A stretch of DNA of 64,000 nucleotides. It comes from Armatimonadia bacterium. GTDB taxonomy: Bacteria; Armatimonadota; Zipacnadia; Zipacnadales; UBA11051. The notes under the pieces are model-generated. The model had not been told where the DNA came from, did not search any database, and worked only from the letters and a program-made list of their open reading frames with translations. This document shows positions 37,953 to 61,873 of the stretch, piece by piece; position 1 is the first letter of the stretch, and each line of letters starts with the position of its first letter. The DNA is taken from NCBI GenBank assembly GCA_039683575.1, contig JBDKRC010000235.1:4100-68099 (forward strand), read 5' to 3'. Made by a program: the position numbers and the translations under genes.

Positions 37953-38011
37953 TGCGCTATGCGTTCAGCGAAGCGAAGTTCGTCGGTTGCTACGCCCGTG
38001 AAGGAGAGCGA

Positions 38012-45264: not shown

Positions 45265-46299
45265 ATGGCCAAACGCAATTTATCAATGATTGAATACTTC
45301 AACAAGATGGCAAAGAACTGGGTCCCGCTGCTGACCTTCCAGGGCAACTCGCTCGCTGAATTCGAGGACTGGCAGGCCAAGGCCAGCGAGAAGTTTTTCG
45401 AGCTTCTCGGCGACTTTCCCCAGTCGGTGGATTCGGAGCCGGAGATCATCTACTCCATCGAAGAAGATGGGATCATCCGCGAAAAGGTAATCTTCGACTC
45501 CGAGGAGGAGATGTCCGTCCCGTGCGTAGTCCTGCGGCCGACCGATATGGAGGCCGACGGCACCAACGCCGCAATCCTGTGCAGCCACGGCCACGGGCCG
45601 TACGGCAAAGAGCCTGTGGCCGGCAACAAGTCCAGCGCCGGGCTGCGCGAGCAGATCGCCGCCCACCAGTACAACTATGGCGAGATCATGGCCCGTGCGG
45701 GGTATATGACACTCTCGCCCGACCTGCGTGTGTTCGGCGAACGTTCCGACGGCGGCAACCCCTACCCCGGCCGCGACCGTTGCAACGTGCAGTTCCTGCG
45801 CGGGGCGATGTGGGGCGTGTACACGCTGATGCTCAACATCTGGGACATGAAGTGCTGCGTAGACTACCTGCAGTCGCGCGCTGAGATGAACCCCGACCGC
45901 ATAGGCATGATGGGCCTGAGCCAGGGAGGCACGATGACGACCTTCGCCACGGCCGCCGAGCCGCGGATCAAGTGCGCCGACATCATCGGCTACCTGATCC
46001 CGTGGGAGCACCTTGCCATCAACCGGGCCAACTGGTGCGGAAGCCAGATGATTCCCGGCGTGTATCGCTTCTTTGACGTGCCGGATATCGCCGGCCTGAT
46101 CGCCCCGCGCCCACTCCTCATCGAGATGGGCGTACAGGACAGCGGCTTCTTCATCGAGGAGCAGTTGAAGGCGTTCGACCACCTCAAGCGGATCTACGAC
46201 GCGGCGGGCGCAGGCGAGGACCTGTGGCAGGACATGCATCCGGGAGAGCATGCGTTTGCCAACAACAAGGCGCACGAGTTCTTTGGGAAGTATCTGTGA
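45265..46299 (+). CDS. Alpha/beta-hydrolase-fold esterase (dienelactone-hydrolase/acetyl-esterase-like, 344 aa).
   Basis: Nucleophile elbow GLSQGG, a CSHGHGPYG block, and C-terminal DSGFF...HPGEHAF. GC is about 55%. Confidence 0.6.
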   Translation: MAKRNLSMIEYFNKMAKNWVPLLTFQGNSLAEFEDWQAKASEKFFELLGDFPQSVDSEPEIIYSIEEDGIIREKVIFDSEEEMSVPCVVLRPTDMEADGTNAAILCSHGHGPYGKEPVAGNKSSAGLREQIAAHQYNYGEIMARAGYMTLSPDLRVFGERSDGGNPYPGRDRCNVQFLRGAMWGVYTLMLNIWDMKCCVDYLQSRAEMNPDRIGMMGLSQGGTMTTFATAAEPRIKCADIIGYLIPWEHLAINRANWCGSQMIPGVYRFFDVPDIAGLIAPRPLLIEMGVQDSGFFIEEQLKAFDHLKRIYDAAGAGEDLWQDMHPGEHAFANNKAHEFFGKYL

Positions 46300-46338
46300 G
46301 CGAAGGAGATCAGCACGCACTGCCCATGGAGGAAGACT

Positions 46339-47562
46339 ATGCCAAACGAGCACGCCACCGGCACCAGACGGCTCAGGGGAGAGGCAGTCATCGCCTGCGC
46401 ATTGGCGTCCGCGTTCCTTCTGCTCTCCACCGCTCGGACGCAGGCCCAGCAGGCCGATGTCTCCAGTCTCTGGGTTAACGACAATAAGGGCGACGACAAT
46501 GCGACTGGTGACCGTGCGCATCCTCTGAAGTCGATCTCGGTTGCCTTGTCCAAGCTATCGGAACCCCTGCTGCACGGGGTGACCATCCACTGGGCCGGCG
46601 GCACGATCCTGTCCAGCGGCGGCAGGTGGATGCTTCCGGATCGCCTGCAACTTATGCTCCGCATGCTCCCCAGTGCGGGCGTGCGAATCGTCGGCGAACC
46701 CAACGAAGCGGGAGCGCTTCCGGTGCTGGCGTTCCGGGGTGATCCACTGGTTGATGTTGTCGAGGGCAACTGGTGGCTGGAAAACTTGCAGATCGGCAAC
46801 GGCAATTACGCTTGCGGTTTGAGGGCAACGGGGCCCGGGGTGGTGCGCCTCAGCAACGTGACGTTCCGCATCTATACCAACAGCGGCTGTGCCATACAGG
46901 CCCGTCGAGGCGGTCTGGTCGAACTCAGCGGCGCGATCAAGATCAATGAACACCTCCACGACCAAGCACCCCCTGACAGCTTTGCCAGTATCGTGGCGGA
47001 GTACTCCGGCATCGTCCGCTACGTCGACAGCGACCATAGTTCGCTCGATATGGGCAACGGTCAGTTGTCGACCAGCTACTATGGCGTGATCGAGCTCGGG
47101 GCCAAGGACGTGCGCGTCACAAGCTGGGGCGGGCAGAGCAACTGCGTCGCCATCAATGACAGTGGCCGCATCGACTTCCATGGCTCAACGATCCGACTGT
47201 GTGCCCGCCTCAAAGGCAACACACCTGTCGGCCTTGAGGACGATGGGCATGTGCTGGGCGAGGGAGCTCACTTGATCATCGAGGGTGACAACAACAACGC
47301 CATCGTTCTCCAGAAGAACAGCGCCTTCGGATGCACTACGGTCGAACTAAGAGGGCCTATCCGGACGGCGGTCAGTGCGATGAGCGGATCCACCTTTCAC
47401 GGCGGCTTTCTTGGCGACATCGGAAGTGTGGACGTCGACACGGGTGCCTGCGTTGCAATCGGCGAGGTCCAGGGGCGCATCACCGGGCAAGTGACTGCCA
47501 TCCGTGGCGGCACAGTCGTCCTTCCAGGAGGCAAGGTCATATTTGGTCAGGGCGGCCTCTAG
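46339..47562 (+). CDS. Secreted right-handed parallel beta-helix-like protein (407 aa).
   Basis: Signal peptide (VIACALASAFLLLSTARTQAQQ), then WVNDNKGDDNATGDRAHPLKSISVAL and Gly/Asn-rich repetitive strands. Confidence 0.4.
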   Translation: MPNEHATGTRRLRGEAVIACALASAFLLLSTARTQAQQADVSSLWVNDNKGDDNATGDRAHPLKSISVALSKLSEPLLHGVTIHWAGGTILSSGGRWMLPDRLQLMLRMLPSAGVRIVGEPNEAGALPVLAFRGDPLVDVVEGNWWLENLQIGNGNYACGLRATGPGVVRLSNVTFRIYTNSGCAIQARRGGLVELSGAIKINEHLHDQAPPDSFASIVAEYSGIVRYVDSDHSSLDMGNGQLSTSYYGVIELGAKDVRVTSWGGQSNCVAINDSGRIDFHGSTIRLCARLKGNTPVGLEDDGHVLGEGAHLIIEGDNNNAIVLQKNSAFGCTTVELRGPIRTAVSAMSGSTFHGGFLGDIGSVDVDTGACVAIGEVQGRITGQVTAIRGGTVVLPGGKVIFGQGGL

Positions 47563-47585
47563 GCGCCCGACCGGGCCTCATCGCT

Positions 47586-47818
47586 CCCCGCCGCTGCTGA
47601 TCGAGATGGGCGTACAGGACAGCGGTTTCTTCATTCAGCGCTTGCTCAAGCAACTGGCGGCGTATGACTACCTGAGGTGCATCGCAGATGCACCTCATAG
47701 CGCATCTATGACGCGGCGGGAGCCGGCGAGGACCTGCGCCAGGACATGCCCCCAGTGAGCACGCGTTTCTTAACAACAAGGTGCACCAGTTCTTCGGAGA
47801 GCACTTGTCGAGCGTCTG
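47586..47818 (+). pseudogene. Degenerate copy of the 3' end of the 45265-46299 hydrolase gene (frameshifted, with indels).
   Basis: ccgctgctgatcgagatgggcgtacaggacagcgg is nearly identical to 46108-46160. Downstream, atctatgacgcggcgggagccggcgaggacctg...aacaacaaggtgcaccagttcttcgg is a diverged homolog of the gene end. It contains the perfect palindrome GAGGTGCATC-GCA-GATGCACCTC at about 47672-47694. Confidence 0.7.
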
Positions 47819-48112
47819 ACCACTGAGCAGTCTCCCACGTCGGGGCTTGGCCGCCGGCCACGGTTCAGCACCACTACTGAGGAGCTACTTATGTCGCGGT
47901 CCGCACCCGCTGGGATGAGAATGCGCAAGATGGTGGCTGATGTCGGCGGCCGGAGCGGAGTCCGGGCGAACTAGACTCCGCCGCCTGTCAGGCGAACCTG
48001 ACACCCGCCGACTCGATGGTTTGGTGCCCGCCAAGGCGGCCCTGCCCATCTTTCCATTTCTTTGCCGTTGCCGTTACCATCCTCGCCGTTATTCTCAGAG
48101 GAGGTTCGTCAC

Positions 48113-49610
48113 CATGGATCGACTGACCGTTTCGCGCCTTCTGACCACGCTGTTGTCGATGGCGCTGCTCTCAACCGGATGGGCCCTGCCGTGTAGACAG
48201 TGCGGCGCTGGACCTGCAACCGTGGCCCAACGTCGGGCAGACTGCGGTGCGGTGGCACCGACCAAGGCCGTTGCGTACGCTGAGCCCGAGGTGGCCTGGG
48301 CTGGGCGGCCGCCGGCCGTCGGAATACGAGTGGCGCAGGCGGTTCCTGTCCCCGTCCCTCCGGTCGCACCGGTCACGCCGGCGGCCGGCCAGAAGGGTAT
48401 GCCATGGGAGCGGGCGGGCACCGCTGTGGGGCAGGAGATTGTGGGGCCCGACGGGGGCAAGATGGTGTGGGTGCCCGCCGGCAGCCTCCTGATGGGGTCA
48501 GACGAGAAGGACGCGCCTACCGATGAGAAGCCTGCACACCTGATGAAGCTCACCGGGGGCTTCTGGCTGGGGAAGTACGAAGTCACGATCGGACAGTACC
48601 GGGCCTTCTGCCAGGCGACGGAGAGGCGGTTCGGTTCCGACACCAGCGCCCCACCGGATCACCCCATGGAGGGACCGAGTTGGGATGAGGCAGCCGCTTA
48701 CTGCCAGCATTTCGGTCTTGTGCTACCCACGGAGGCGCAGTGGGAGTACGCGGCGCGAGGCGCTGACGGAAGGCGGTATCCATGGGGCAACGAGTGGGAC
48801 GCGAAGAAGTGCTGTAATGGTGCGAACAGGGGTACGGGAAGGGTTTTGACTCTGGCCGTGGGCAGCGTTGAGGCGGACCGTAGCTGGTGCGGTGCGGCAG
48901 ACATGGCTGGGAATGTCCGTGAATGGTGCGCGGACTGGTATGGCGATGCCTACTACGCGCAATCGCCTCCAGAAGACCCCAAAGGGGCCGGCAACGGCGA
49001 GTTCCGAGTCCTCCGGGGTGGTTCTGTTGAAGCCAACGGCGAGAGCTATTTCAGCGCATGGCGCCGCGGGCGGTGTCGTCCGGATATGCAGTACTTCTCC
49101 ATCGGGTTCCGTTGTGTGGCTTTGCCGTCCCAACCGATGCTCGATGGCAGTGACGTTGTGGTCGAGGGCGAGAGCTACACCAGTATTGCCCAATCCATGG
49201 CGCGGGGCAGCGATGCGGCCGCCTCCGGAGGGGCCTATGTCGGCATTCCGCTGGCTGAACCGCACGCGGCAAGAGAAGCTGCAACCCAGGACACGGGCAA
49301 CTGCGCGTATACGGTCGTGATCTCCACTGCCGGGGAGTACCGTCTGTGGGCGCGGGTATGGTGGACAGATTCCTTCGGCAACTCATTCTACCTGAGGCCG
49401 CCGGACAAGAAGATCATCGTGCTCGGCCAGGATTCGACCTTCCAGAGCTGGCACTGGGTCCGCGGCCCGTCATTGCACCTTGACGCGGGTCCAGTGACCA
49501 TCGTCGTTCAGAATCGCGAGGGTGGTACCCGGCTTGATGAGTTCCTGCTGACGACGAAGACAGACTACGTGCCGATCGGCCCCCTGTCAGAGACCGCGCA
49601 GAACAACTGA
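48113..49610 (+). CDS. Secreted FGE-sulfatase (SUMF1/formylglycine-generating-enzyme family) domain protein with a C-terminal extra domain.
   Basis: GGFWLGKYEVTIGQYRAFC...NVREWCADWY...FRVLRGGS...IGFRCV are typical of PF03781. Signal peptide after the Met at 48113 (MDRLTVSRLLTTLLSMALLSTGWA). Confidence 0.75.
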
Positions 49611-50045
49611 GTCACCGCGAGAGCAGGGCGCCTACACTATCGCGGTGCTGCAGTTGCGCCCATGTCACCGGCACAGATCGTCACCGCTGCCTCTCCGGGC
49701 GGAGTGAGCGTTGCGGGGCACAAAGACCACGCAAGCAGGCAACACGCGGCTGGCCGACTGCAGAACCGCGGAGGCCCCCAGGCTGTATTGGACCAGTTCT
49801 GAGGTCAGCGCCTGATCGCTCCCCGCCCGCTCCTGATGGAAATGAACGCGCAGGACAACCGTGTCTTCATCGAGAAATGGTTGTATAGCGTTCAATTATC
49901 TGAAGTGCCACCCGTGGAGCGCCTTGATGAGGCTATCGGCGCTGGCGGAGGTCTCTCGCAGCACCTGCACCCGGACGACCGTGTTAGCCTGACAGTAGGC
50001 GGAGTGGCCTTGTCTGCGGCACATCCAGGTCTAGGAGGAAACCAA

Positions 50046-52433
50046 GTGAAGAACGTAATTCTGGTTCTGGTCCTGACGCTGTGCTCCCTGTGTCTCGTCG
50101 CGCACGCACAGACGGTCACCCTCGATTCTCCACGAGAAGTCCGTATGTCCGAGGGCACAAAGGTGTGCGAACAGGCGGACAAACTCTTGGATGAAGGCAA
50201 GCCCTCGGAGGCGCTAAAGCTATACCAGCAGGTGCTGACCTTCCTGCCAACCTCCCCCCGGGCAAAGGCCGGGGTCGCGGAGTGCAAGGTGCTGTTGGCG
50301 GCCACGACACCCGTGGCGGGGGGCCAAGTTTCGACTGGGGCCAGCCACTATCCCACCAAATACATCCGGTTTCCTCTGCCCCCACAGGGAACTAGAACGT
50401 TGCTGTTGAGCTTCGCGGCGAATGCGGCGGGGCAGTATACGATCATGGAAGTGGATGTTGACGGGAATGGCAAGATCGAGACCGCGGAGCGGCGGCAGGG
50501 GACTGCGCGAACGTACCAGAACTGTGAGTTCAGCGGGGCCGACCTGGGAGAGTTCGCGTTGCCACCAGGACCGGCTGGAAAGGTTTCGATCACGACCAGT
50601 TGGTCTCACGCGGCGCAGCCCGGCAAGCCCGTGGTTGACCAGTTCAGCGGGAAGTGGCAGTGGCTGTCGCCTGCGGGGCAGGATACGTGGAGCTATGCCG
50701 GGACGTGGCTGGGGCGTTTCAGTCTGGACAACCTCAATCAGGGCAGCATCTATGGGGAGAAGGCTGCACTGAGGCCGTACCCGCAGTTGGAGGGGGTGGC
50801 GGCAGGACAAGCGATAGTGCGGGTGCAAGGCGTGAGTGTTCCGTGGGGAACCGCGACGAACTGGCTTAAGAACGGCGCGCAGTGCGAAATGAAGCTGAGA
50901 GTGACGGATGAGAAGGGGACTGCAGTCCATCAGGGGGCTCTGCAGGCTGGGTCAAACGGGCTTTTTGAGACGACGGTGACGCTGCCCGGAGGAAAGTATG
51001 TGGCAGAGGTTCGCACCGATACGGGGCCGATAGCGGGCGAGGTCGCCGGGACGGTTCCGTTTGAGGTGAAGGCTTCGCTGGCGGCGACACAGAGGACGGG
51101 GCTCAAGGGACCTGTCATGAAGGTTGGCCGGCGGATCTTCAAGGACGACGCCGAGGGCACTGACAACTACAGCCTCATGTCGTGGGTTCAGGATTTCAGG
51201 GAATGCTGCGCCAGCGACTATGTGTTGCCCGAAAAGAGCATGCTGGTGGTGCGGCCACTGGATAATGTACAACTGACGGATGTGCAGTGCATCGCTCTGG
51301 CGGAGGAGCTGGCAACCGTGCAGGCGCCGGTGGGGGTGCAGATGTATGGACAGAAGGAGTTGACCATCAAGGGAATAACGGCACTGGCGAAGGTGCCGAA
51401 CCTGCGTTCGCTGGCCTTGATGCGATTTGACAACCTGGACGACAAGGCCTGCGAGACGATTGCCACGGCAAAAGAGCTGCGGTTCCTGTGGCTGAACCAG
51501 AATGCGAAGATCACGGACCAGGGAATCCAGTACCTGGGCGCTCTGCCTGAGCTGGGCTATCTCAATATTGGGGATACGCCCGTTGTTGGGTCGGGTCTGA
51601 AGGCGCTGTCAGGCTGCAATAAGCTCGACCGGATCTATGTCGGGTCGGCGGCTTTCAAGGACGCCGCGCCTTTGGGGGCCTTTACGTCGGTGCGGGAGTT
51701 AGCCCTGTGGGGGGCGAAGGACACGACGGGCCTGGAGGAACTGCGTAACCTGCAGCGGCTGAAGTGGCTCAGCGTTCATGGCATTGACTGCCCTCCGGAC
51801 AAGCTCAAGTTCCTCTCCGAGCTTCCTGAGTTGATGAACCTCTCGATCCAGGGCAACCAGTTGCTGACGGATATTAGTACCACGCCTATCCCCCAGATTA
51901 CACGTCTGAAATACCTCAGTCTGCGAGACTGCCGTAACCTGGCTGCGGGGCTAAACTCTCTGGGAGGGCTGCGAGCCCTCGACAGCCTGGATCTGCAGGG
52001 TTGCCGTTCGCTTGACGGGACGGGCCTGAAAGTGCTCACCGGTGCGCCGATATTCTGGCTGGACCTCAGCGGGTGCGAAAGCATGAAGGACGCCGGACTG
52101 AGCGAGGTGGGCAGCCTGACGCAGGTTAACCAACTCGAGGCCGACGGGACAGGGCTGGGCGACGGGGCGGTGGCGCAGTGGCAGGGCTTGGCGAGTATGA
52201 CGCGGCTTGACGCCTATAACACACCGCTTACGGATGCAGGAATGGAGGCCTTGGCGCGGCTCCCCGTACGCTACCTGGGCCTGAACGGGTGCAAGGCCAT
52301 TACCGACAAGGGATTAATGGCCCTGACGCGCTCGGACAAGCTGCAGTCGGTGGGGGTAGGCGGTACGGCAGTGACAGACGCAGGGATAGCAGCGGCGCGG
52401 CAGGCCAAGCCGCAACTGCAGATCAGCAAATAA
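50046..52433 (+). CDS. Secreted leucine-rich-repeat protein with the conserved N-terminal module (paralog 1, about 795 aa).
   Basis: AGGAGG lies 8 nt before GTG. Signal peptide VKNVILVLVLTLCSLCLVAHAQT, then SPREVRMSEGTKVCEQADKLLDEGKPSEALKLYQQVLTFLPTSPRAKAGV. The C-terminal half has LRRs (LRSLALMRFDNL..., LRFLWLNQNAKITDQGIQYLGALPELGYLNIGDT...). Confidence 0.6.
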   Translation: MKNVILVLVLTLCSLCLVAHAQTVTLDSPREVRMSEGTKVCEQADKLLDEGKPSEALKLYQQVLTFLPTSPRAKAGVAECKVLLAATTPVAGGQVSTGASHYPTKYIRFPLPPQGTRTLLLSFAANAAGQYTIMEVDVDGNGKIETAERRQGTARTYQNCEFSGADLGEFALPPGPAGKVSITTSWSHAAQPGKPVVDQFSGKWQWLSPAGQDTWSYAGTWLGRFSLDNLNQGSIYGEKAALRPYPQLEGVAAGQAIVRVQGVSVPWGTATNWLKNGAQCEMKLRVTDEKGTAVHQGALQAGSNGLFETTVTLPGGKYVAEVRTDTGPIAGEVAGTVPFEVKASLAATQRTGLKGPVMKVGRRIFKDDAEGTDNYSLMSWVQDFRECCASDYVLPEKSMLVVRPLDNVQLTDVQCIALAEELATVQAPVGVQMYGQKELTIKGITALAKVPNLRSLALMRFDNLDDKACETIATAKELRFLWLNQNAKITDQGIQYLGALPELGYLNIGDTPVVGSGLKALSGCNKLDRIYVGSAAFKDAAPLGAFTSVRELALWGAKDTTGLEELRNLQRLKWLSVHGIDCPPDKLKFLSELPELMNLSIQGNQLLTDISTTPIPQITRLKYLSLRDCRNLAAGLNSLGGLRALDSLDLQGCRSLDGTGLKVLTGAPIFWLDLSGCESMKDAGLSEVGSLTQVNQLEADGTGLGDGAVAQWQGLASMTRLDAYNTPLTDAGMEALARLPVRYLGLNGCKAITDKGLMALTRSDKLQSVGVGGTAVTDAGIAAARQAKPQLQISK

Positions 52434-52452
52434 CTGTGGGGAGAAGCCTGAG

Positions 52453-54075
52453 ATGAAGAAGATCGTGCTTCTGCTGCTCGTGGGGATACTTGGTGTCATT
52501 GTGACTGCCCAAGCACAGACGGCGACTGTTGATTCCCCGCGTGAAGTGCGCATCGCGGAAGGCACCAAGCTTTGCGACCAGGCGGACAAGCTACTGGCGG
52601 AGGGGAAGGTGCAGGACGCTTTGAAGCTGTACCAGGCGGCGCTGAAGATCCTGCCGACTTCGCCGCGGGCGAAGGCCGGAGTGGAGAAGGCGAAGGGGGC
52701 GGCGGCAGCCCCGCAAGCCACGGCACAGCCGACGCCACCAGCCGCGCCCCCCCTCCCGCCACTGCCTCAGGAAGATGTGCCCGTGCCGCCGCAGACACAG
52801 GGTGCCTGCCCTCCGGAGGCGCTGGCGTGGCCAACGGTGATGGCGACCAAGCTGCAGGACCAGATTCCGTGGAAGGCATTCTACTGCAGTGTGGGACAGT
52901 ATGGCGGCGGGCTGGAGCGGGCCGCCCAGGCCGGACTGCGCGTGTGGGGTAGCTGGACCAATACAGCGATGTGGCTGCAACAGCCGCTTTCGGACCAATG
53001 GCTGCTGACGGTGGAAGTGGGATACCCTAAGGAAGACAAGAGCGGTCAGGCGGCCATCTGGCTCAATGGGCCAGGCCACGGGACCTCGGTCAAGGCGGGT
53101 TACTGCATCCAGGTGGGCCGCACCGAGGGAGCCATGTACGGACCAGGGACGACGGGACGCTTCACTGTCGCCCCGCCGTTCGCTGCCGAGAGCTATCACA
53201 TTGTCAACGTGCTCCGCAAGGGGCCGCAGTTCAGCTTATGGCTGGATGGACAGGAGATCGGCAGCTTTGAGGATACCGCGTCACTGTCCGGGCCGCTGTA
53301 CTCCCGTATTGGCATCGGGGCACTCGGCGGAAGCGAGGTATACTACCGGAACCTGCGGATCCAGGCAGTGCCACCGACTCCGGCTGCCCTCACTGAGATG
53401 AGCAAGATGCCAGCCGCACCCGCGCCGACCACGCCGCCCGCTCCGAACGGTGAGTTGCTGGCCGAAGTGAAGATGGATGGCCAGAATCCGGACTGGCACA
53501 TCTCGATGCCGCAGTCCACGTTCTGGAGGGGAGACCGGGTCATTCTCTGTGGCACATCGCCACGACTGCTCTGGCAGAAGGGGACAACCCAGGACTTCGC
53601 TTTCGAAGCAGACGTCCAGTACGTGCCCAGAAAGTACCCGGACCCACTGATGGTGCCGGAGGCGCAGCCAGACCGTTACTTGGCGACAGGCGCGGCGGAA
53701 GCGGAGTTGTTCATGTTCGTAAGGTTCGCTTCCGTGGTACCGATTGACCCTAAGGACGAATACCAGCCGCCGCCCGGCGCAGGCTGGCACTTCAGTTTCA
53801 ACCAGCAGGACCACCGTCTGGTGTGGAGAGATGCGGAGGGACGCCAGGGCGAGGCAACCAGCGTCCCCGCCTTCTGCCCCTTCGGCGGCAACAGATACAC
53901 GGTTCGAGTGGAGGTGCGACACGATCTCATTAGAGCCTATGTGAATGGGGCGCTGGTGACGGAGACGCCGCTGGGGGATCACTCGTGGCCGGCTAACCAG
54001 AAGGCTTTCGCGGCTGTCGGTAATTTGTTTGAAGGTGTCACCGTCTACGGCGCCCGCATCTATGCTCTGCAGTGA
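52453..54075 (+). CDS. Secreted DUF1080 (3-keto-disaccharide-hydrolase-like) two-domain protein with the conserved N-terminal module (paralog 2, 540 aa).
   Basis: Signal peptide MKKIVLLLLVGILGVIVTAQAQT and the SPREVRIAEGTKLCDQADKLLAEGK...LPTSPRAKAGV module. DUF1080-like endings VYYRNLRIQA and TVYGARIYALQ. Confidence 0.55.
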   Translation: MKKIVLLLLVGILGVIVTAQAQTATVDSPREVRIAEGTKLCDQADKLLAEGKVQDALKLYQAALKILPTSPRAKAGVEKAKGAAAAPQATAQPTPPAAPPLPPLPQEDVPVPPQTQGACPPEALAWPTVMATKLQDQIPWKAFYCSVGQYGGGLERAAQAGLRVWGSWTNTAMWLQQPLSDQWLLTVEVGYPKEDKSGQAAIWLNGPGHGTSVKAGYCIQVGRTEGAMYGPGTTGRFTVAPPFAAESYHIVNVLRKGPQFSLWLDGQEIGSFEDTASLSGPLYSRIGIGALGGSEVYYRNLRIQAVPPTPAALTEMSKMPAAPAPTTPPAPNGELLAEVKMDGQNPDWHISMPQSTFWRGDRVILCGTSPRLLWQKGTTQDFAFEADVQYVPRKYPDPLMVPEAQPDRYLATGAAEAELFMFVRFASVVPIDPKDEYQPPPGAGWHFSFNQQDHRLVWRDAEGRQGEATSVPAFCPFGGNRYTVRVEVRHDLIRAYVNGALVTETPLGDHSWPANQKAFAAVGNLFEGVTVYGARIYALQ

Positions 54076-54134
54076 CAATCGCAGGCGCACGCAGCAGCTG
54101 GTAGTGCAGAATGCTAGACTTGGGAGGCAGCCAG

Positions 54135-55850
54135 ATGAGGAAACCAGTTCCGTTTCTGATGTTGGCGATCTGGTTGGGATGTCTCGTCGCATACGCGCAG
54201 ACAGTGACCATTGATTCGCCACGCGAGGTGCGCATTGCCGAGGGTACTAAGCTTTGCGATCAGGCTGATGGGCTGGTCGCGGAGCGGAAGTATGCGGAGG
54301 CTCTGTCACTATATCGTGACGTACTGAAGATTCTGCCTACTTCGCCGCGGGCGAAGGGCGGGGTGGCGGCTTGTGAGGGGAAGTTGAAGGAGGCGGCGGC
54401 CGCGCCGAAGGCGGTCGTGGAGACGCCAAAGCCAGCGCCGGTGGCACAGGCGGCACCGCCAGCGGCGCCGCTGGCAGTGCCGGTGGCAATGGCGTCGCCG
54501 ACGGTGCAGTTAGGGCGACGGTTATTGCCTCCCAATCCCGATGACTATGAAGCATACAGCATGTTCGGCGAGATGCTTGACTGGACTAAGTCCACCGTCA
54601 GCCAGTATAAGAAACTTCCCGAGGGCAACATGCTGATAGTCACGGCCCATGGCTGGGACCCGGGAGGCCAGTTGGAGGACGGACAACTGGTGACGCTGGT
54701 GCAGGAGTTGCGCGAAATCAGGTGCCCGGTGGTGCTGACGCTGCTGAAGCAGACGAAACTGACTACGGCGGGATATGCGCAGTTGGCGGGATTGCCGAAC
54801 GTCGTGGCCCTGGCGGTGCAACAGTGCGCGACGGTGGATGATGAGGTTCTGGCGAGTTTCGCCAAAATACCGGCGCTGCGTTCGCTGATGCTCAATGAGT
54901 GCCACAAGGTGACTGATGTGGGGGTCAAGCGGCTGGCGGCGCTGCAGGATCTGCAGTATCTGAATGTGGCCAAGTGTGAGTTGGTTACGAGTGAGGGCGT
55001 GAAGGCGCTCAGCGCGTGTCCGAAGCTGGCGTCGCTGAACTTGTGGGGGACGCAGGGGTTTGCTGACGTTACGGCACTGACTGGGCTGACGTCACTGCGG
55101 GCGCTGGTGATGTTTTCAAAGCTGGACTCCAAGACACTGCCCGAGCTTGGGAAGCTGAAGAAGCTGCAGACACTAAACATGTCGGGGAACAATTTCGAGC
55201 GAGATTACAGCTTCCTCGCAGCTTTGCCGGAGTTGGAGACGCTGACGATAGCTGACGATCATATGCTCAGCGATATCGGCAAGAGCGATCTTGCGGGATG
55301 CAGGAACCTTAAGAGCCTGTCGCTGCCGAACTGCGGAGGGTTGACAGGCAGCGTGGCGCCCCTGGCGGCTCTTACCCAACTGGAGTCACTTAGTCTGAGC
55401 TACTGTCAGGAATTCACTGGAGAGGGGCTGCGGGAGTTAGCGGTGCTGCCGAAGCTGGAGGCACTTAGCATAACTGAGGCGTCGAAAGTCGGCAGTCCAG
55501 CGCTGGGCGAGATTGCCGCGCTGACGCAGTTGAAGTCGCTCAACCTGTGGAACTGCGACCTCTCTGACGCCGGGTTGGCGCAGTTGGCATCCCTGAAGGG
55601 ACTGCAGAAGGTCGGTTTGGCGGGCAAAGCAATAACGGACGTCACTTTGCAGTTGCTGGGAGGATTACCTGCTCTAGAGGAGGTAAGCCTGCGCGATACC
55701 ATAGAAGTCACTGACGCGGGGCTACTGGCACTAGCGCAGGCACCCGCAATGAAAAGGGTAGCCATACGGTACAGCAAAGTGACGCCAGCAGGCATCGGAG
55801 CGGCTAAGGCGGCCAAGCCCGGCCTTGTAACCGAAGTGATAGCGCCGTAG
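54135..55850 (+). CDS. Secreted leucine-rich-repeat protein with the conserved N-terminal module (paralog 3, about 572 aa).
   Basis: GGAGG lies 8 nt before the ATG. MRKPVPFLMLAIWLGCLVAYAQT, then the SPREVRIAEGTKLCDQADGLVAERK...LPTSPRAKGGV module. LRRs (LQYLNVAKCELVTSEGVKALSACPKLASLNLWGT...). Confidence 0.6.
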   Translation: MRKPVPFLMLAIWLGCLVAYAQTVTIDSPREVRIAEGTKLCDQADGLVAERKYAEALSLYRDVLKILPTSPRAKGGVAACEGKLKEAAAAPKAVVETPKPAPVAQAAPPAAPLAVPVAMASPTVQLGRRLLPPNPDDYEAYSMFGEMLDWTKSTVSQYKKLPEGNMLIVTAHGWDPGGQLEDGQLVTLVQELREIRCPVVLTLLKQTKLTTAGYAQLAGLPNVVALAVQQCATVDDEVLASFAKIPALRSLMLNECHKVTDVGVKRLAALQDLQYLNVAKCELVTSEGVKALSACPKLASLNLWGTQGFADVTALTGLTSLRALVMFSKLDSKTLPELGKLKKLQTLNMSGNNFERDYSFLAALPELETLTIADDHMLSDIGKSDLAGCRNLKSLSLPNCGGLTGSVAPLAALTQLESLSLSYCQEFTGEGLRELAVLPKLEALSITEASKVGSPALGEIAALTQLKSLNLWNCDLSDAGLAQLASLKGLQKVGLAGKAITDVTLQLLGGLPALEEVSLRDTIEVTDAGLLALAQAPAMKRVAIRYSKVTPAGIGAAKAAKPGLVTEVIAP

Positions 55851-55879
55851 TAGGTGAACTAACAGCAGGGCCTGGGGAT

Positions 55880-56270
55880 GCCGGCGGGCAGCGGTAACTC
55901 TAAAAGTGACCATGGCTGGTACGCCTTCAGCCCTGACAGCAAGAGGCTGATCGGGGGACAGCGGTGCGGACAGAAGTGGCGGGTAGTGGTAGAGATCCAG
56001 CCGGGGCCGGAGTACGACGCCATCGGCGTCCTGGGCGTCCTGGGCGGCAGCAACCCCTCCAAATCGCCAGCGTGTTTCAGCCCCGACAGCCGCCGCGTGG
56101 CGTATGCCGAGCAGCACGGGGCAAGTGGTTCGTCGTGCTCGACGGCGCTCCCGGCCCCGCGTACGATGACTGCTTCGGCCCGGTGTTTCCGCCGAACGGC
56201 AAGCTGGATTACTTGGCTGTAGAGGACGGCGTGCTGTATCGTGTCTCAGCGCTACCCCACGGCGCCTAGC
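55880..56270 (+). pseudogene. Frameshifted fragment of a PD40/WD40-like beta-propeller repeat protein.
   Basis: Two frames carry repeat units (WYAFSPDSKRL / CFSPDSRRVAYAEQHG in one frame; KWFVVLDGAPGPAYDDCFGPVFPPNGKLDYLAVEDG in another) that match each other (KWRVVVEIQPGPEYDAIG). Confidence 0.35.
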
Positions 56271-56304
56271 GCGCCGGGAGATCACATCGAAGGAGCGAAC
56301 TGCA

Positions 56305-57942
56305 ATGAGCAGGGCTACCATCTACCTGGTCATGGCCGTATGGTTAGCGGTTATGGTCGGTGTTCACGCGCAGACAGTGACGCCGACTTCCCCCCGTGAA
56401 GTCAGAATCGCCGAGGGGATCAAACTGTGCGATCAGGCGGACAAGCTACTGGCGGAGGGGAAGGCTCAGGACGCTTTGAAGCTGTACCAGTCGGCGCTAA
56501 AGATCCTGCCGACGTCACCGCGCGCGAAGGCCGGGGTAGAGAAGGCGAAGGCCCCCCCGGCGGCGCCCGTAGCCGTTCCAGCGCCACCGGCCGCCGAAAC
56601 CGTGCCAGTGCTGGAGCCGCCCAAGCCACCGACCCTCCCGCTGCCGCAGGATGAGTTTGCTGTTCCACCGGAGACACAGCAAGCCTGCCCCGCCGAGGCC
56701 TTGGCGTGGCCGACTGTAATGGCGACGACGTTGCAGGGGAGGATTCCCTGGCACGCCTTCTACATCTACGCCGGGCAATATGGCGGCAGCGTCAAGCCAG
56801 AGGGGCAGGCGGGACTGAGGGTCTGGGGCTCTTGGACCGACACCGCGCTGTGGCTGCGCCAGCCGCTTTCGGAATACTGGCTGCTCACAACTGAGGTGTG
56901 CGTCAAGAAAGACGACGGCATCTGTTTCCCGTGCTTTTGGCTGAGTGGCCCGGGATACGGCAATGCCCTCGGAATGCCCTACTCAGTGTCAATGACCTGC
57001 TCCGAAGGGTCTGTCACCGGCGGCGGGCGCACGGGCAAGTTCCGCATGCCCGAGGGCGTGAAAGAGGGAAGCTACTACACTCTCAACCTGCTGCGACAAG
57101 GGTCGCACTTTTCGATGTGGGTGAATGGTCAGCAGATTGGTGAGTTCGATGATGCGACTCTGACTGGCCCCCAATACAGCCATATAGCGATCGGCGCTCA
57201 GGGTGCCCCGGAAAAGGGCGTCTTCTTCCGGAATCTCCGCATCCAGGCGCTACCCCTGACGGCCGAACAGGCTGTGTCACTGGCGACGCCGCCGCTGTTG
57301 CCGGAAGCGACGACACCGCCCGCCCCCAACAAAAAGCTCCTGCAGGAACTTAGCCTCGACGGGCGCAGTGAAGGCTGGACATTTCCGCAGCCTCAGAACA
57401 TCTATTGGAAGCATGACAAGGCTGTGCTTGTGGATTCAGCTGCACGCCTGCTGTGGCAGACGGGGCTGACAGAGGATTTTGCTCTCGAAGTGGATGCCCA
57501 ATACCTCCCGAAGGTCTTCCCTACTCCGCTGATGCTCCCGGACAACCTGCCTGACGCCTACCTGCTTACCGGTGCCGCCGAAGGTGAACTGCAGTTGCAC
57601 GTGGGCTTGGGTGATGTAGCACCCACCGGTATGGACGGAGCAGACTTGCCCTCGCGGTGGCTCTTTATCTTCAACTCGTCCGGCAACCGGCTGGTGTGGA
57701 CGGGTGCCAATAAACAGGAGCAGAAAGCTTCCTCCCCGTACTTTGGCCCCACCAATGGCAACAGATACACGCTACGAATGGAGTTCCGGCGTAACGCCAT
57801 ACGCGCCTTCATCAACGGCCGACTAATGTTCGAGTCCGCAACCACCGATCACCCGTGGCTCCCGGGAACCAAGGCTTTCACGGGCCTGGATCAGGTCTAC
57901 GATGGCATCGTCATCCACGGCATGCGGATCTACAGTCTGTAG
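56305..57942 (+). CDS. Secreted DUF1080-like two-domain protein with the conserved N-terminal module (paralog 4, 545 aa).
   Basis: AAGGAG RBS. MSRATIYLVMAVWLAVMVGVHAQT plus the module. Collinear with paralog 2 (VFFRNLRIQALP ... HGMRIYSL). Confidence 0.55.
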   Translation: MSRATIYLVMAVWLAVMVGVHAQTVTPTSPREVRIAEGIKLCDQADKLLAEGKAQDALKLYQSALKILPTSPRAKAGVEKAKAPPAAPVAVPAPPAAETVPVLEPPKPPTLPLPQDEFAVPPETQQACPAEALAWPTVMATTLQGRIPWHAFYIYAGQYGGSVKPEGQAGLRVWGSWTDTALWLRQPLSEYWLLTTEVCVKKDDGICFPCFWLSGPGYGNALGMPYSVSMTCSEGSVTGGGRTGKFRMPEGVKEGSYYTLNLLRQGSHFSMWVNGQQIGEFDDATLTGPQYSHIAIGAQGAPEKGVFFRNLRIQALPLTAEQAVSLATPPLLPEATTPPAPNKKLLQELSLDGRSEGWTFPQPQNIYWKHDKAVLVDSAARLLWQTGLTEDFALEVDAQYLPKVFPTPLMLPDNLPDAYLLTGAAEGELQLHVGLGDVAPTGMDGADLPSRWLFIFNSSGNRLVWTGANKQEQKASSPYFGPTNGNRYTLRMEFRRNAIRAFINGRLMFESATTDHPWLPGTKAFTGLDQVYDGIVIHGMRIYSL

Positions 57943-57996
57943 ATCAGGCAGAAAGCCATTGCCGTCGCTGCCACAACGTACAGAGGGAGAACACCG

Positions 57997-58242
57997 ATGA
58001 CGAAGGCGACGCTCTTCTTAAGTGTCATACTCTTGCTCGGTGCGACTGTCGTTAGTTCCGCTGAGACCGTCACCGCGACATCGCCGCGCGAAGTGCGCAT
58101 CGCGGAGGGAACGAAGCTGTGCGACCAGGCCGACAAGCTGCTGGCGGAGGCGCAGGCGCAAGAAGCTATGAAACTGTACCAGCAGGTCCTGACCTTCCTG
58201 CCAACGTCCCCGCGGGCGAAGGCGGGTCGGTCAACCTGCTAG
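57997..58242 (+). pseudogene. Truncated fifth paralog of the N-terminal module family (81 aa), ended by an in-frame TAG that aligns with a Glu codon of the paralogs.
   Basis: MTKATLFLSVILLLGATVVSSAETVTATSPREVRIAEGTKLCDQADKLLAEAQAQEAMKLYQQVLTFLPTSPRAKAGRSTC*. GCG AAG GCG GGT CGG TCA ACC TGC TAG GAG AAA CTG AAG aligns with the paralog-3 sequence GCG AAG GGC GGG GTG GCG GCT TGT GAG GGG AAG TTG AAG (TAG versus GAG). The same frame continues into the hydrolase 3'-end fragment. Confidence 0.6.
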
Positions 58243-58371
58243 GAGAAACTGAAGCAACAGCCGACGGCGTGTACCGCCGCAGCCAGGCCGGCCTTTGTGC
58301 TGCCGCCTTCAACCAGCATTTTCGAGGCTGCCATAGAAGGCAACTTGACGTCCTTGCGCGACTTCCTGGAC

Positions 58372-58584
58372 ATAGCGGGTCTCATCGCCCCGCGCCCACT
58401 CCTCATCGAGATGGGCGTGCAGGACAGCGGGTTCTTCATCGAAGAGCAACTGACAGCCTTCTCGCACCTCAAGCGCATCTACGACGCCGCCGGCGCGGGC
58501 GAGGACCTCTGGAAGGACATGCACCCGGGGGAGCATGCGTTTGCCAACAACAAGGCGCATGAGTTCTTTGGGAAGTACCTGTAG
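58372..58584 (+). repeat. Copy of the 3' end of the hydrolase gene (about 93% aa identity over the last 70 codons), in frame with the truncated paralog upstream.
   Basis: DIAGLIAPRPLLIEMGVQDSGFFIEEQLTAFSHLKRIYDAAGAGEDLWKDMHPGEHAFANNKAHEFFGKYL* matches DIAGLIAPRPLLIEMGVQDSGFFIEEQLKAFDHLKRIYDAAGAGEDLWQDMHPGEHAFANNKAHEFFGKYL*. Confidence 0.8.
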
Positions 58585-58872
58585 AGCATCTCATGCGATG
58601 ACGGCTGTCTCATAGGCGCTGACAACGAACATGCTCTCGAGTAGAGAGGCCCATGCGCTTTCTCGGCCCACGCCTCCGTTGCTTCCTGGTGCCGAAGCCT
58701 CACCTCACAGGGCTGTGGCCACCCCGGCGGAGAGGGGGGAGTGCTGGTCGTGCCTGTCCACGCATCCCTCGATCCGTTCGATGGCCGCCTTCGTGGCGGG
58801 GAGACCCGCGCCTGACGTCCTATTGCGTGATGTCGTACGGGCGAAGCCATGCTTCATAATGGAGGATTTGCG

Positions 58873-60441
58873 ATGAAACCTGCCCTGCTCCACTATCTCC
58901 GCGTCGCCATGATCCTACTCTGCGCCGGCTGTCGGACGGGGCCGCTTGGCGCACAGTCCTCGCCCAGACTGGTTGAGGTGTATCTTTCGGACATCGGGGC
59001 CGCATCGCTGCCGGCCGAACCATCACGGTATCACGAGAATAGCAGTTTCTACGGGCGTCAGATGACTATCAACGGCAAAGAGTACGCCCGGGGAATCGGG
59101 ACTCATGCGCCGTCGAAGATCACGTATGACCTCGAAGGTCTGGGTTTCACCCGGTTCCGGGGGGTGGTGGGAGTTGACCAGGAGACGGCTGAGGAGCCCG
59201 GGGGCAGTTGTGAGTTCGTCCTGATCGGAGATGGTAACGAGATATTCAATAGTGGCGTGGTCAGGAAGGTCGACGTGGGCGTAACCGTGGACGTTGACGT
59301 GCGTGGTATCACGGAACTGCAGTTGGTCGTGACGGACGCGGACGATGGCGATACGTGTGATCACGCAGACTGGGCTGATGCGCGTCTTCTGAGGCCCGCC
59401 ACCGCCACTCCGCCTCTGCCGCCAAAGGGCCATCAGCCTCCGGTCAGCAACCCACCGAGTTCTCCCCGCCTGCTCACCGATACGCTGCGGGAACTCAAGG
59501 TCCTGGTCGTGTGCATCGATCCCCCCGTCAATTCTGCCGACGGGAAGCGGCTGCACGAGGTGGCCCGCTGGAATGATCCCCGGCAGCTTGCGGACCAGTA
59601 CATCGCCGCTCTTCGTGGGTGCAGCAAGGGCTATCTTCGCTACCGTATCGTTGACTGGGTAGACTGCGACTACTTCCTCCTACAGGCAGATGGTTTTCGC
59701 TACCCAACCGCCGAAGCCTACCTTACCGCCCTCCGCGGCCAAGCCATTCACCGGCCTGATGTTGCCGGTCTTCGTAGGTTCATCACAGACGGCGTCACCT
59801 ACCATTTCAACAATCCCCGAAGCATCGCGCAGCGCGTGGCGGACGGCGAGATAGATGAGGTCTTCGTGTTCAACCCATGGGGTGCCGGCGGGTTCGGCGA
59901 GGCCAACATGGCCGGTCCAGCCCCATTTGGCATCAATGGGTCCATCCGCATCGTGCCGGAAACCGGACGCAACATCGCCGTCATGGAGTTCAATTATGAG
60001 AGAGGCGTTGACTGCATGCTTGAGAATTTCTGCCACCGCACTGAACGCAGCCTAAGTCGCGCATATGGGCTTTTTGGTCGGCCGGCGCCGCAAGGAACGC
60101 TTGACAACTGGCAACGCTTCAGTGCCTACGACAAGATCATGCCAGGGAATGCAGCCGTAGGGAACTGTCACTTTGCCCCCAATAGCGCATCAGACTATGA
60201 CTGGGGGAACAAACGAATGGTGCCAAGTTCATGCGACGACTGGCTATTGAACTGGCCGGACTTGCGGGGTATCCGGCGGGAGGTGGACTGCTCCGAGTGG
60301 GGCGGCGGCGACATGCGCCTGCATCACATCTGGTGGCTGAACCATCTGCCGTGTGCACGCGGCACAAACCCTGACGGTTTGGAGAACAACTGGTGGAAAT
60401 ACGTGGTCGATCTCGATGGTTATGCCGCCCACCCACGGTGA
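58873..60441 (+). CDS. Lipoprotein with an N-terminal NPCBM/NEW2 carbohydrate-binding-like domain and an uncharacterised C-terminal domain (about 522 aa).
   Basis: GGAGG lies 8 nt before the ATG. Lipobox LLCAGC. NPCBM hallmarks: ...YARGIGTHAPSKITYDLEGLGFTRFRGVVGVDQE...CEFVLIGDGNEIFNSGVV...LQLVVTDADDGDTCDHADWADARLL. Confidence 0.7.
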   Translation: MKPALLHYLRVAMILLCAGCRTGPLGAQSSPRLVEVYLSDIGAASLPAEPSRYHENSSFYGRQMTINGKEYARGIGTHAPSKITYDLEGLGFTRFRGVVGVDQETAEEPGGSCEFVLIGDGNEIFNSGVVRKVDVGVTVDVDVRGITELQLVVTDADDGDTCDHADWADARLLRPATATPPLPPKGHQPPVSNPPSSPRLLTDTLRELKVLVVCIDPPVNSADGKRLHEVARWNDPRQLADQYIAALRGCSKGYLRYRIVDWVDCDYFLLQADGFRYPTAEAYLTALRGQAIHRPDVAGLRRFITDGVTYHFNNPRSIAQRVADGEIDEVFVFNPWGAGGFGEANMAGPAPFGINGSIRIVPETGRNIAVMEFNYERGVDCMLENFCHRTERSLSRAYGLFGRPAPQGTLDNWQRFSAYDKIMPGNAAVGNCHFAPNSASDYDWGNKRMVPSSCDDWLLNWPDLRGIRREVDCSEWGGGDMRLHHIWWLNHLPCARGTNPDGLENNWWKYVVDLDGYAAHPR

Positions 60442-60717
60442 TCTGGCATTGGAGGGGCCGCAGCGTCAGCGCCCGAGGTGGGATCACCGCTAGGTCACGA
60501 CCCGCTGCGTTACGCAAGGCGCACGGGGCTGCGCTTCGGTTGCGGAACCGGGCCGAGTGTAGGCTGCCAGGATCTTGTTGCTGCGGCCGAGGACCATATT
60601 GGCGGGTTCTTGGCCCACACACTATCTGCCGGGCGCCAATCGAAGGCGGATGCAGCGCCAACACAGTGGCGTCGGCTATTGTCGTTAGGTGACTAGACAG
60701 TACCCAACATCTACAAG

Positions 60718-60949
60718 TACTTTGACGTCCCAGACATTGCCGGGCTGATCGCGCCACGGCCGCTGCTGATCGAGGCCGGTGTCCAGGATAGCGGGTTCTT
60801 CATTGAGGAGCAGTTGGCGGCCTTTGACCACCTCCAGCGCATTTATGACGCGGCTGGGGTTGGCGAGGACCTGTGGCAGGACGTGCATCCGGGGGAGCAT
60901 GCGTTCGCCAACAATAAGGCGCATGAGTTCTTTGGGAAGTATCTGTAGA
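60718..60949 (+). repeat. Most diverged copy of the hydrolase 3' end (about 77 codons, ending KYL*), abutting the convergent SWIM gene. Candidate original attB-side remnant.
   Basis: YKYFDVPDIAGLIAPRPLLIEAGVQDSGFFIEEQLAAFDHLQRIYDAAGVGEDLWQDVHPGEHAFANNKAHEFFGKYL*. Confidence 0.75.
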
Positions 60950-60955: not shown

Positions 60956-61873
60956 TCAGCGGCGCGTCTTCGCTGAGGGGACGTCTTCGGCGGAGCCTTC
61001 GGGCAGGAAGACCTGCATCCCGGTCTCGGACGCGCGTGGGTAGATCGCCTCAAGGGCTGCCTGCAGCGGTGTCTCGCCCCGCCAGAAGGGAAAGTTGCCC
61101 AGCCGCCGGGGCAGGGCGGCGGGCACCGTCGGGACGCGGACCTCTCCGAACAGGTCGTCCGGCAGCGCCTCGCCGTGCCAGAAGTCTGGAGGGCTCGTCG
61201 GCAGCGGCTCTTCAGGCAGGACCGGCGCCGGTTCGGGTTCCTCACAAACACCGAGACCGGCCGGGCCGATCAGTTCGACGAGCCCGTCGCGCTCCATCCC
61301 GCGCAGTCTGAAAATCAGGAAGGGATCACGGTCGAACTCCTCGCCCAACAGATAGTAGACGGCGGCGATGTGTTTGCAGGGGTTGGACCAGTCTGGACAC
61401 GAGCACTGGGTCTGCAGATCGCTGACCGGGTTGGGAAACAGAGACAGCCCGGCCTCGGCGAAGACGGTCTCAATGTCCTGGGGCATCTCTCCGGCCAGCA
61501 GCCGCGCGGCGAAGATGGCCTGGCTGGCCAGGCGTTCGCCCACTTGTGCCCACTCCTCATGCGACAGCGCCTTGACGGTCACCACCACCTTGTAGGGCTT
61601 CCTACGCGAGCCCTGCACTTCGGCGGTCACGAGTCCGCGGTCAATGTCAACGCTGAGCACCTGGCCTCCGCGCGCATAGCGCTTGCCGCGACCCAAGCGT
61701 GCGCCCAGGTCAAAGCTCTCCAGGACCGCGATCCACCGCTTGGCCCACCAGTTCCTGGCGAAGGAGCCTCGCTGGGCATGAGCCTTGATCCCGCCGTCAG
61801 CAGCCAGCGGCTTGGACTCTGGAAACTTCGGGTAATGGTCATCCCAGTGCGAACGCATGGCAATTCTCCTCAA
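60956..61873 (-). CDS. SWIM zinc-finger protein (SNF2-helicase partner).
   Basis: SWIM CxCxnCxH motif CSCPDWSNPCKHIAAVYYLL. Confidence 0.75.
   Translation of the reverse strand: MRRIAMRSHWDDHYPKFPESKPLAADGGIKAHAQRGSFARNWWAKRWIAVLESFDLGARLGRGKRYARGGQVLSVDIDRGLVTAEVQGSRRKPYKVVVTVKALSHEEWAQVGERLASQAIFAARLLAGEMPQDIETVFAEAGLSLFPNPVSDLQTQCSCPDWSNPCKHIAAVYYLLGEEFDRDPFLIFRLRGMERDGLVELIGPAGLGVCEEPEPAPVLPEEPLPTSPPDFWHGEALPDDLFGEVRVPTVPAALPRRLGNFPFWRGETPLQAALEAIYPRASETGMQVFLPEGSAEDVPSAKTRR

Follow-up and report, generated by a model that had tools for sequence, protein, structure and literature searches.

Copies of an esterase gene 3' end separate accessory-gene cassettes in an Armatimonadia bacterium and its relatives

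How does the 3' end of one ordinary metabolic gene come to be repeated several times downstream of an intact copy of that gene, with unrelated genes in between? The locus that raises this question (W) lies in a 64,000-nucleotide (nt) stretch of DNA, referred to here as the window, from an Armatimonadia bacterium (assembly GCA_039683575.1, contig JBDKRC010000235.1, positions 4,100 to 68,099 of the forward strand). It is anchored by an intact plus-strand gene (45265-46299) encoding a 344-residue alpha/beta hydrolase of the Abhydrolase_7 type in Pfam, whose closest solved structures are the esterase-like proteins 3g8y and 3nuz. We designate the working 3' module of this esterase gene c1 (46027-46299, plus strand, approximately residues 255-344), its downstream copies c2 to c5, any leftover copy of an esterase 3' end a tag, and the related loci compared with W by L-numbers. 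Sequence comparisons support the serial acquisition of foreign 3' ends together with new genes at this site.

A blastn search of the window with the esterase gene returned matches at 58360-58587 (86.8% nt identity, E = 3e-75), 60720-60946 (84.1%, E = 1e-67) and 47574-47797 (70.4%, E = 2e-27); over repeat finding, tblastn and blastn, the E-values for the 3'-end copies range from 1e-25 to 1e-75. Three downstream copies had been described in an initial annotation of the window and are present where it placed them, far beyond chance, but one further copy (c3) had been missed and the total including c1 is five, not four. Reading rightwards along the plus strand, c2 (47571-47817) is degenerate and frameshifted as first described, being split over three reading frames at ~70% nt identity, with an insertion of ~30 nt and its stop codon lost. 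The strongly degraded c3 (49810-50015) is recognisable to 49973, with a projected end at ~50015, and matches residues 278-326 at 48% amino acid (aa) identity and 78% nt identity over its first 65 nt. The intact-looking c4 (58359-58584) encodes residues 271-344 at the 93% aa identity originally reported. A long 'class A' tag, c5 (60676-60948), has a decayed leader of 25-35 nt with an in-frame TAG, followed from 60700 by residues ~259-344; the earlier estimate of about 85% identity agrees with both the nt value above and the aa value of 85%. The right end of every copy corresponds to the esterase stop codon and the left edges are staggered, at ~249 (plus the 25-35-nt leader), 226, ~206 and ~209 nt before it; slight variation in homology boundaries had been noticed in the initial annotation. 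No 5' fragments of the esterase gene were found anywhere in the window, and no other window gene shows 3'-end repetition of this kind.

The layout of the locus was derived from the listing of open reading frames (ORFs) and Pfam scans, and comprises four plus-strand cassettes, each followed by a tag. Cassette 1 (46300-47570) holds a single ORF (46339-47562, 407 aa) without a Pfam match, described as a beta-helix protein in the initial annotation. Cassette 2 (47818-49809) encodes an FGE-sulfatase-domain protein (ORF 47940-49610; PF03781, E = 5e-50), cassette 3 (50016-58358) four paralogous secreted proteins and a truncated fifth paralog, identified by Pfam and repeat finding, and cassette 4 (58585-60675) an NPCBM-domain protein (ORF 58849-60441; PF08305, E = 5e-40) with a 235-nt spacer. 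The cargo does differ between copies, as had been claimed, but the FGE-sulfatase gene and the leucine-rich repeat (LRR) and DUF1080 genes make up two cassettes rather than one because c3 sits between them. Beyond c5 lie three minus-strand genes, encoding a SWIM protein (60956-61873), a 195-aa protein (61870-62457) and a SNF2 helicase (62458 to past the window end at 64000), the first and last identified by Pfam; c5 and the convergent SWIM gene are adjacent as stated, with corrected ends of 60948 for c5 and 60956 for the SWIM ORF. The stacking of unrelated genes behind the esterase, each followed by a tag, makes the gene end a recurrent docking point for foreign DNA. The G+C content is 0.60-0.62 across 43-61 kb compared with 0.65-0.68 in the flanks, and no tRNA genes occur in the window. 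Scans for promoters and terminators showed no enrichment of such sites, and exact-sequence look-ups of the esterase and of a serine recombinase gene directly upstream of it returned no match. The best homolog of the cassette-1 protein reaches 57% identity, and the search was therefore uninformative on cassette mobility.

Scans of genome and metagenome collections provided 146 esterase loci, and the 80-residue C-terminal module used as a query recovered 31 short ORFs that represent displaced fragments. The same architecture is present in eight further arrays of related Armatimonadota, giving nine arrays with W and ~16 cargo units. In L083 the esterase gene is followed by a gene for a 289-aa protein, a tag, an RsgA GTPase gene, a tag and a DUF6891 gene, and in L152 (a 113-kb contig) by GHL10, a tag, LVIVD, a tag, an APH kinase gene and a tag. 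L080 has Imm26, a tag, a gene for 162 aa and a tag; L085/L003 a DUF4258 toxin and a Zn-ribbon protein followed by a tag; L153/L154 a gene for 168 aa and a tag; L155/L156 a short tag, a gene for 785 aa, a tag and a TIR-ankyrin gene; L159 a methyltransferase gene and a tag; and L160 RsgA, a tag, the SWIM operon and a tag. Most cargo units consist of a single gene and 15 of the 16 are co-oriented with the esterase. In several cases the cassette ORF starts 0-40 nt after the stop codon, and in L003 (position 1179) and L080 (position 1527) the GTG of the first cassette overlaps the esterase stop (CTGTGA), which suggests that the first cassette may be translationally coupled to the esterase. The contigs of L011, L068, L069 and L079 end inside the esterase at residues 285-325, within the repeated 3' module; tags probably break assemblies, and arrays would therefore be under-sampled.

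An identical multi-copy arrangement in relatives had been named as evidence against integration; the relatives carry different cassettes between esterase and tag. The syntenic relative is L160. Its homology with W begins precisely where c5 does (W 60676), and extends at 95.5% identity over a 3.3-kb match covering the SWIM, 195-aa and SNF2 genes (~97-98% beyond the tag). Left of the position equivalent to W 60676, L160 holds one RsgA cassette and an L077-type esterase, whereas W has four other cassettes. On this alignment cassette content at one chromosomal locus is shown to differ completely between close relatives. The initial annotation had recommended a search for relatives in which the esterase is directly followed by the SWIM gene; no fully empty site was found, and L160 has a single, different cassette there. 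The esterases and upstream DNA of L152 and L083 are 95% identical, with homology stopping exactly at the stop codon and no common cassette beyond it. In L077 the RsgA gene directly follows an intact esterase, and L083 has an extra cassette and a duplicated 188-nt gene end before the same RsgA module, which is 91% identical between the two from the stop codon onward. In both L085 and L080 a native neighbour gene, 'X', lies 14 nt past the last tag, so that different cassettes were inserted between esterase and X in these two lineages. A possible relationship of X to cassette 1 of W was considered and the two are unrelated. From these alignments we regard rapid turnover of cassette content at a fixed locus as shown.

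Codon alignment of c1, c4 and c5 gave ratios of nonsynonymous to synonymous divergence (dN/dS) of 0.04-0.06 at synonymous divergences (dS) of 0.7-1.5, with pairwise differences at first, second and third codon positions of 4/3/22, 4/3/29 and 8/4/32. The amino acid sequence encoded by c5 is 100% identical to the C-terminal 74-80 residues of the intact L077 and L160 esterases, and over 74 codons c5 differs from L077 at 16 nt, all of them silent and 15 at third positions. Across 11 pairs of tag and own gene end from seven arrays, the differences by codon position total 51/47/154 (chi-square p ~1e-19), and the tags are free of stop codons; with differences mostly synonymous and reading frames stop-free, the tag sequences evolved as segments of functional genes belonging to different lineages. 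The closest functional ends elsewhere are those of L077 for c5 (92%) and L078 for c4 (88%), both nearer than the end of W's own gene. These data support derivation of the copies from different functional esterase alleles and not by duplication in place. Since c5 follows the L077/L160 functional allele over its whole length, the most plausible reading is that it was formerly the resident gene end of the lineage.

The working gene end of W also has a history that is foreign relative to the gene body. Between W and L079 the esterase body is 87.4% identical and the 3' end 97.5%, an end-minus-body difference of +10.1 that is an outlier among 153 allele pairs (mean -2.8, standard deviation 3.0). Correspondingly, dS is 0.43-0.93 over residues 1-258 and 0.07 over residues 259-325. 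The last dense mismatch falls at gene nt 762 and the breakpoint within gene nt 663-763, placing the start of the exchange tract 270-370 nt upstream of the stop codon. The converse pattern is seen between L079 and L153, with 92.1% identity in the body and 84.1% in the end. As judged by this allele comparison, the working 3' end of W is shown to be a foreign module, and 3' modules to be exchanged between lineages. Tag c4 is a patchwork with best matches to the functional end of L078, f1 of L155 and c1 of W, and alignments of this kind show tags to be mosaics of several alleles.

Pairwise alignment, proposed in the initial annotation as a way to find a shared core, identified a common core, formed by the final 48-60 nt and ending at the stop codon. 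This core encodes PGEHAFA(N/D)NKAHEFF(G/R)KYL, and from the alpha/beta-hydrolase fold and the two nearest structures its PGEH motif probably contains the catalytic histidine. Tags fall into length classes of ~241-257 nt (five arrays), 188-226, 94-113 (five arrays), 61-73 and 48 nt. The long tags of W, L142, L152 and L159 have a common decayed leader of 15-35 nt despite different upstream cargo; tags of the -110 class share their boundary position and have no common leader. We considered whether the long tags could be remnants of full-length gene copies, and this was ruled out by the absence of any residual esterase homology to their left. Comparison of 81-nt cores with shuffled sequences gave no hairpin (fold z-scores of -0.6 to +1.0 in nine of ten sequences and -2.2 in one), there is no conserved dyad or inverted repeat common to the core copies, and inspection of the last 28 nt by eye revealed no convincing dif/Xer-like site.

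We tentatively favour, as a reading that may well be correct while falling short of probable, an integrase-free cassette array built by repeated, homology-driven displacement of the gene 3' end. In the scheme that we infer for the enzymology and the order of events, incoming DNA would carry the esterase 3' end of another lineage followed by one or a few foreign genes, and would recombine with the resident esterase, which would stay intact while its former 3' end persists downstream as a tag without function. Tags would then serve as portable homology: gene conversion with functional alleles could keep them gene-like, recombination between tags could swap, delete and possibly circularise cassettes, and whole stretches of an array may be replaced. 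The host homologous-recombination machinery would most likely be the driver, with occasional illegitimate joins creating new tag junctions. This displacement scheme is favoured because of the mosaics, the differing lengths of the tags, an exchange tract whose start lies well before the core, the missing recombinase and an untidy junction, of the illegitimate type, at which one cargo ends in a truncated paralog (57997-58242). A recombinase-free model for the same architecture has been published for rhs and type VI secretion system (T6SS) effector/immunity arrays (PMC5361080). The initial annotation had envisaged elements that integrate while carrying a replacement 3' end of their target; serial acquisition is upheld by the foreign ends and variable cargo, but integrase-bearing elements are not, as there are no recombinase genes in the ~16 cargo units of the nine arrays. 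Growth with the newest insertion next to the gene does not fit the order of decay: degradation is greatest in c2 and c3, the tags closest to the gene, and c4 and c5 are intact.

Several observations weigh against displacement by homology. The phenomenon concerns one gene end in one subclade, and generic homologous and illegitimate recombination should be less specific: in a search of 125 loci with a complete gene end (106 of them with at least 1 kb downstream), each with its own gene end, extra copies were found in four, belonging to three arrays, and all four come from the Armatimonadia subclade closest to the window. Discrete classes of left edge (~-250, -190/-225, -110 and -60) recur behind unrelated cargo, four cargo stop codons lie a tidy 4-12 nt from the tag that follows, homology of the RsgA module ends exactly at its own stop codon, and the near-uniform co-orientation of cargo (15 of 16 units) has also to be explained. 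Homologous recombination alone leaves the origin of each new tag junction unexplained. The step in divergence between W and L160 falls within ±10 nt of the stop codon, which a fixed crossover site would give more naturally than RecA-type exchange.

Much of this would be expected if, as in integrons or the staphylococcal cassette chromosome (SCC), a site-specific recombinase encoded elsewhere in the genome acted on the final ~50 nt of the gene, ending at the stop codon, to insert and excise circular cassettes, with tags as the element-borne half-site. Targeting of a single gene end in one clade, the presence of the last 48-60 nt and the stop-codon terminus in all tags, the compact, mostly single-gene and co-oriented cassettes, their rapid turnover between 95%-identical backgrounds, identity breakpoints within ±10 nt of the stop codon and the recurrence of tag classes behind unrelated cargo, in the manner of attC families, all agree with such an enzyme, and the structure of L142 could be the excised-circle or tandem junction of a SWIM-SNF2 unit. 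Yet no recombinase lies in or beside the arrays other than W (several of the contigs are short) and the one beside W belongs to another element; the core has no hairpin or conserved dyad, the tags show a five-fold range of lengths, exchange between W and L079 begins at gene nt 663-763, outside the core, and the same RsgA cargo precedes tags of different classes in L083 and L160. We consider an unlinked recombinase possible, if on the unlikely side. Slightly less likely, but still a realistic chance, is the stricter proposal of a dedicated and so far undescribed capture system, analogous to integrons but built on the coding 3' end of a conserved enzyme gene with its probable catalytic-histidine codon. 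In it cassettes would be tagged with 50-260-nt pieces of the gene, a subclade-specific, unlinked recombinase would act at the stop codon and L142 would be an excised-circle junction. The large serine recombinase next to the esterase is a very improbable array integrase. It is encoded on the same strand and 147 nt upstream, which would suit a platform of recombinase, esterase and cassettes, and large serine recombinases do mediate tandem accretion at gene 3' ends, as in SCC and the ssrA islands of Dehalococcoides (PMC3146451). However, no homolog lies near the esterase in the 146 scanned loci or in L152-L156, or in L159 and L160 as judged from their listed gene calls only; its nearest relative, at 41% identity, ends small phage-like elements; W-L155 homology up to 45093 marks the end of an inserted element; and an upstream tyrosine integrase and two DNA methylases indicate a separate mobile-element region.

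Two explanations need no cassette system. In the first, the esterase 3' end was duplicated locally, the copies decayed and the intervening genes arrived in unrelated events; such segmental duplication would account for direct repeats in one orientation and for the degraded state of c2 and c3. It is contradicted by the codon-position test, with its mostly synonymous differences and dS of 0.7-1.5, by tags that are closer to the functional ends of other genomes than to that of W, and by relatives that hold different cassettes in place of the same arrangement, and we judge it highly implausible. Still less credible is an artefact in which chimeric contigs of metagenome-assembled genomes were joined through the repeated sequence. 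The four contigs that break inside the esterase 3' end would fit, and L142 could be a chimera across a tag, but the architecture recurs in independent NCBI, JGI, ENA and Logan assemblies, including contigs of 113, 33 and 24 kb, and divergence between the copies of one array, at 10-30%, is too great for them to be collapsed in assembly.

The feature is a displacement or accretion array at a gene 3' end, and it links toxin-gene displacement arrays with arrays of integrative elements. In the C-terminal displacement arrays of rhs, contact-dependent inhibition (CDI) and T6SS loci (Jackson et al. 2009 as cited in PMC5361080; Kirchberger et al. 2017, PMC5361080), as here, a main gene is followed by displaced 3' pieces that retain conserved gene sequence and have other genes after each of them, without an integrase and with mosaic alleles. 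Exchange in those systems is by homologous recombination, with a homologous anchor plus an illegitimate join as the proposed origin, and mosaic alleles with homologous exchange of the 3' region are found here also. They differ in carrying variable toxin tips with cognate immunity genes: the repeated piece here is the conserved end of an ordinary esterase, a single cargo is of immunity type (Imm26), and the remainder of the cargo is varied, including glycoside-hydrolase-like, sulfatase-maturase-like, LRR, kinase, methyltransferase, GTPase and toxin-antitoxin genes. The junctions are also tidier here.

Elements of the ICESt/CIME group accrete at fda. Tandem accretion at gene 3' ends is known also from SCC composite islands at rlmH (PMC7029136; bioRxiv 10.1101/336396) and from the Dehalococcoides ssrA islands (PMC3146451), in which, as here, the target gene remains intact and direct repeats of its 3' end separate the units; some units of such systems likewise lack a recombinase ('pseudo-SCC', cis-mobilizable elements). 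Their repeats, of 15-30 bp, are nearly identical, and a serine or tyrosine integrase is encoded beside attL in many units. The repeats here span 48-260 nt with 10-30% divergence, single-gene units predominate and none of the ~16 carries an integrase, including a large serine recombinase of the ccr/dsiB-like type. Integrons resemble these arrays in that a repeat follows each of their compact, co-oriented and mostly single-gene cassettes, in repeat families that recur behind unrelated genes, in rapid turnover between close relatives and in toxin-antitoxin cargo, but the present arrays have no IntI, attI and Pc platform and their repeats are pieces of a protein-coding gene, not attC hairpins. The tycheposons of Prochlorococcus (bioRxiv 10.1101/2020.12.28.424599) share successive integrations at the same site that push older elements into an island, with partial target copies scattered through it. 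Their targets are tRNA genes, and they encode integrases of the tyrosine or large serine type, often together with replication genes, whereas the window has no tRNA genes and the cassettes no integrase or replication genes.

In a phylum that has received little study, an ordinary metabolic gene thus serves as the landing pad for ~16 accessory-gene units in nine arrays, units that combine integron-like compactness and turnover with the lack of an integrase or a structured recombination site. If homology alone drives these arrays, short conserved coding segments would act as 'portable homology arms' that build arrays without dedicated machinery, which would be relevant to the origin of genomic islands and of integron cassettes; if a hidden recombinase drives them, they would represent a new cassette system. 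There is also a practical side, in that tags probably break metagenome assemblies and are annotated as small 'hypothetical' or 'alpha/beta hydrolase' proteins.

In L160 a second long tag (L160 6824-7029) lies beyond the SNF2 gene and places the SWIM operon between direct copies, tag1 and tag2. The SWIM gene had been taken as chromosomal flank and c5 as the end of the array; the SWIM-195aa-SNF2 operon is instead probably another tag-flanked unit, in reverse orientation. The sequence of L142 (1-1287; compare L160 6364-7029) joins the 5' end of SNF2, a tag and the 3' end of SWIM, a junction that could represent an excised circle, a tandem copy of the unit tag-SWIM-195aa-SNF2 or an assembly chimera across the repeat. 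Assignment of the ORF upstream in L142 as the SNF2 N-terminus was at first rejected for want of a match in the window, which ends before that part of the gene, and was then borne out by L160. The divergence between c5 of W and tag1 of L160 is 10.5% (2/3/18 differences over the three codon positions), against 2.7% for the adjacent SWIM gene; the greater divergence of the tag fits conversion limited to the homologous stretch.

The large serine recombinase (43654-45117, plus strand, 487 aa) lies outside the array as the last gene of a separate mobile element. It matches PF00239 (Resolvase, E = 9e-34), PF07508 (Recombinase, E = 1e-14) and the integrase family phrog_95 (E = 3e-83); a zinc-ribbon domain present in its homologs was not scored in the window protein. 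Its homologs, the nearest being that at 41% identity, are the terminal gene at the right end of small phage-like elements, and in L147 (2887-2963) and L149 (9527-9542) the 3' end of the homolog overlaps a convergent host gene by 15-77 nt. The elements of the nearest homologs may integrate into the 3' ends of protein genes and supply a replacement end from the opposite strand. Upstream of the esterase, W and L155 are homologous as far as W 45093, within the last 24 nt of the recombinase ORF, and this point marks the end (~45093-45117) of the separate inserted element, 172 nt upstream of the esterase start. No recombinase was found within 10 kb of the arrays L152, L153, L155 and L159 (contigs of 12-113 kb, up to 10 kb per side), and two scans of viral contigs found no tag.

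Directly upstream of the esterase the window is rich in mobile elements (24264-45117). This stretch encodes AAA/M41-like proteins (24264-26618), a DUF6745 protein (28131-30908), an IstB-like ATPase (30748-32025), a C-5 cytosine methylase (34658-35764), a tyrosine integrase (36664-37797, minus strand) and an N6/N4 methylase (37929-39128), with several ORFs that match neither Pfam nor PHROG. The integrase, the two methylases and the IstB-like ATPase place the esterase at the edge of a mobile-element-rich region. A search for direct repeats of att type bounding the tyrosine-integrase and serine-recombinase elements gave only chance 13-14-mers.

The esterase that heads the L155 array (5147-6182) is split into two ORFs at about residue 152, by a frameshift or a long-read sequencing error; if the split is real, the anchor gene need not remain functional. 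A hit in the cultured Firmicute Cohnella rhizosphaerae (L157 9327-10246) is not an array and appears to be an ordinary degraded esterase pseudogene, with ORFs of 176 and 81 aa beside GFO/IDH/MocA genes; L158 was uninformative. Within cassette 3, the plus-strand genes encode an LRR protein (~50046-52433), a DUF1080/3-keto-disaccharide-hydrolase-like protein (52453-54075), a second LRR protein (54111-55850), a DUF1080-like protein (56305-57942) and the truncated fifth paralog (57997-58242). A module of ~225 nt, encoding a signal peptide and a TPR-like N-terminus (…SPREVRIAEGTKLCDQADKLL…LPTSPRAKAG…), occurs five times between 50088 and 58266, at the head of the two LRR proteins, the two DUF1080-like proteins and the truncated gene. 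These genes are a paralog family with a common N-terminal module and swapped C-terminal domains. The listed ORF for the first LRR protein starts at 49836, inside c3, and its first residues (MEMNAQDNRVFIEKWL) resemble the esterase sequence IEMGVQDSGFFIEEQL. Because c3 supplies this N-terminus, the annotated start may be spurious, and translation probably begins at the GTG at ~50046, immediately ahead of the signal peptide.

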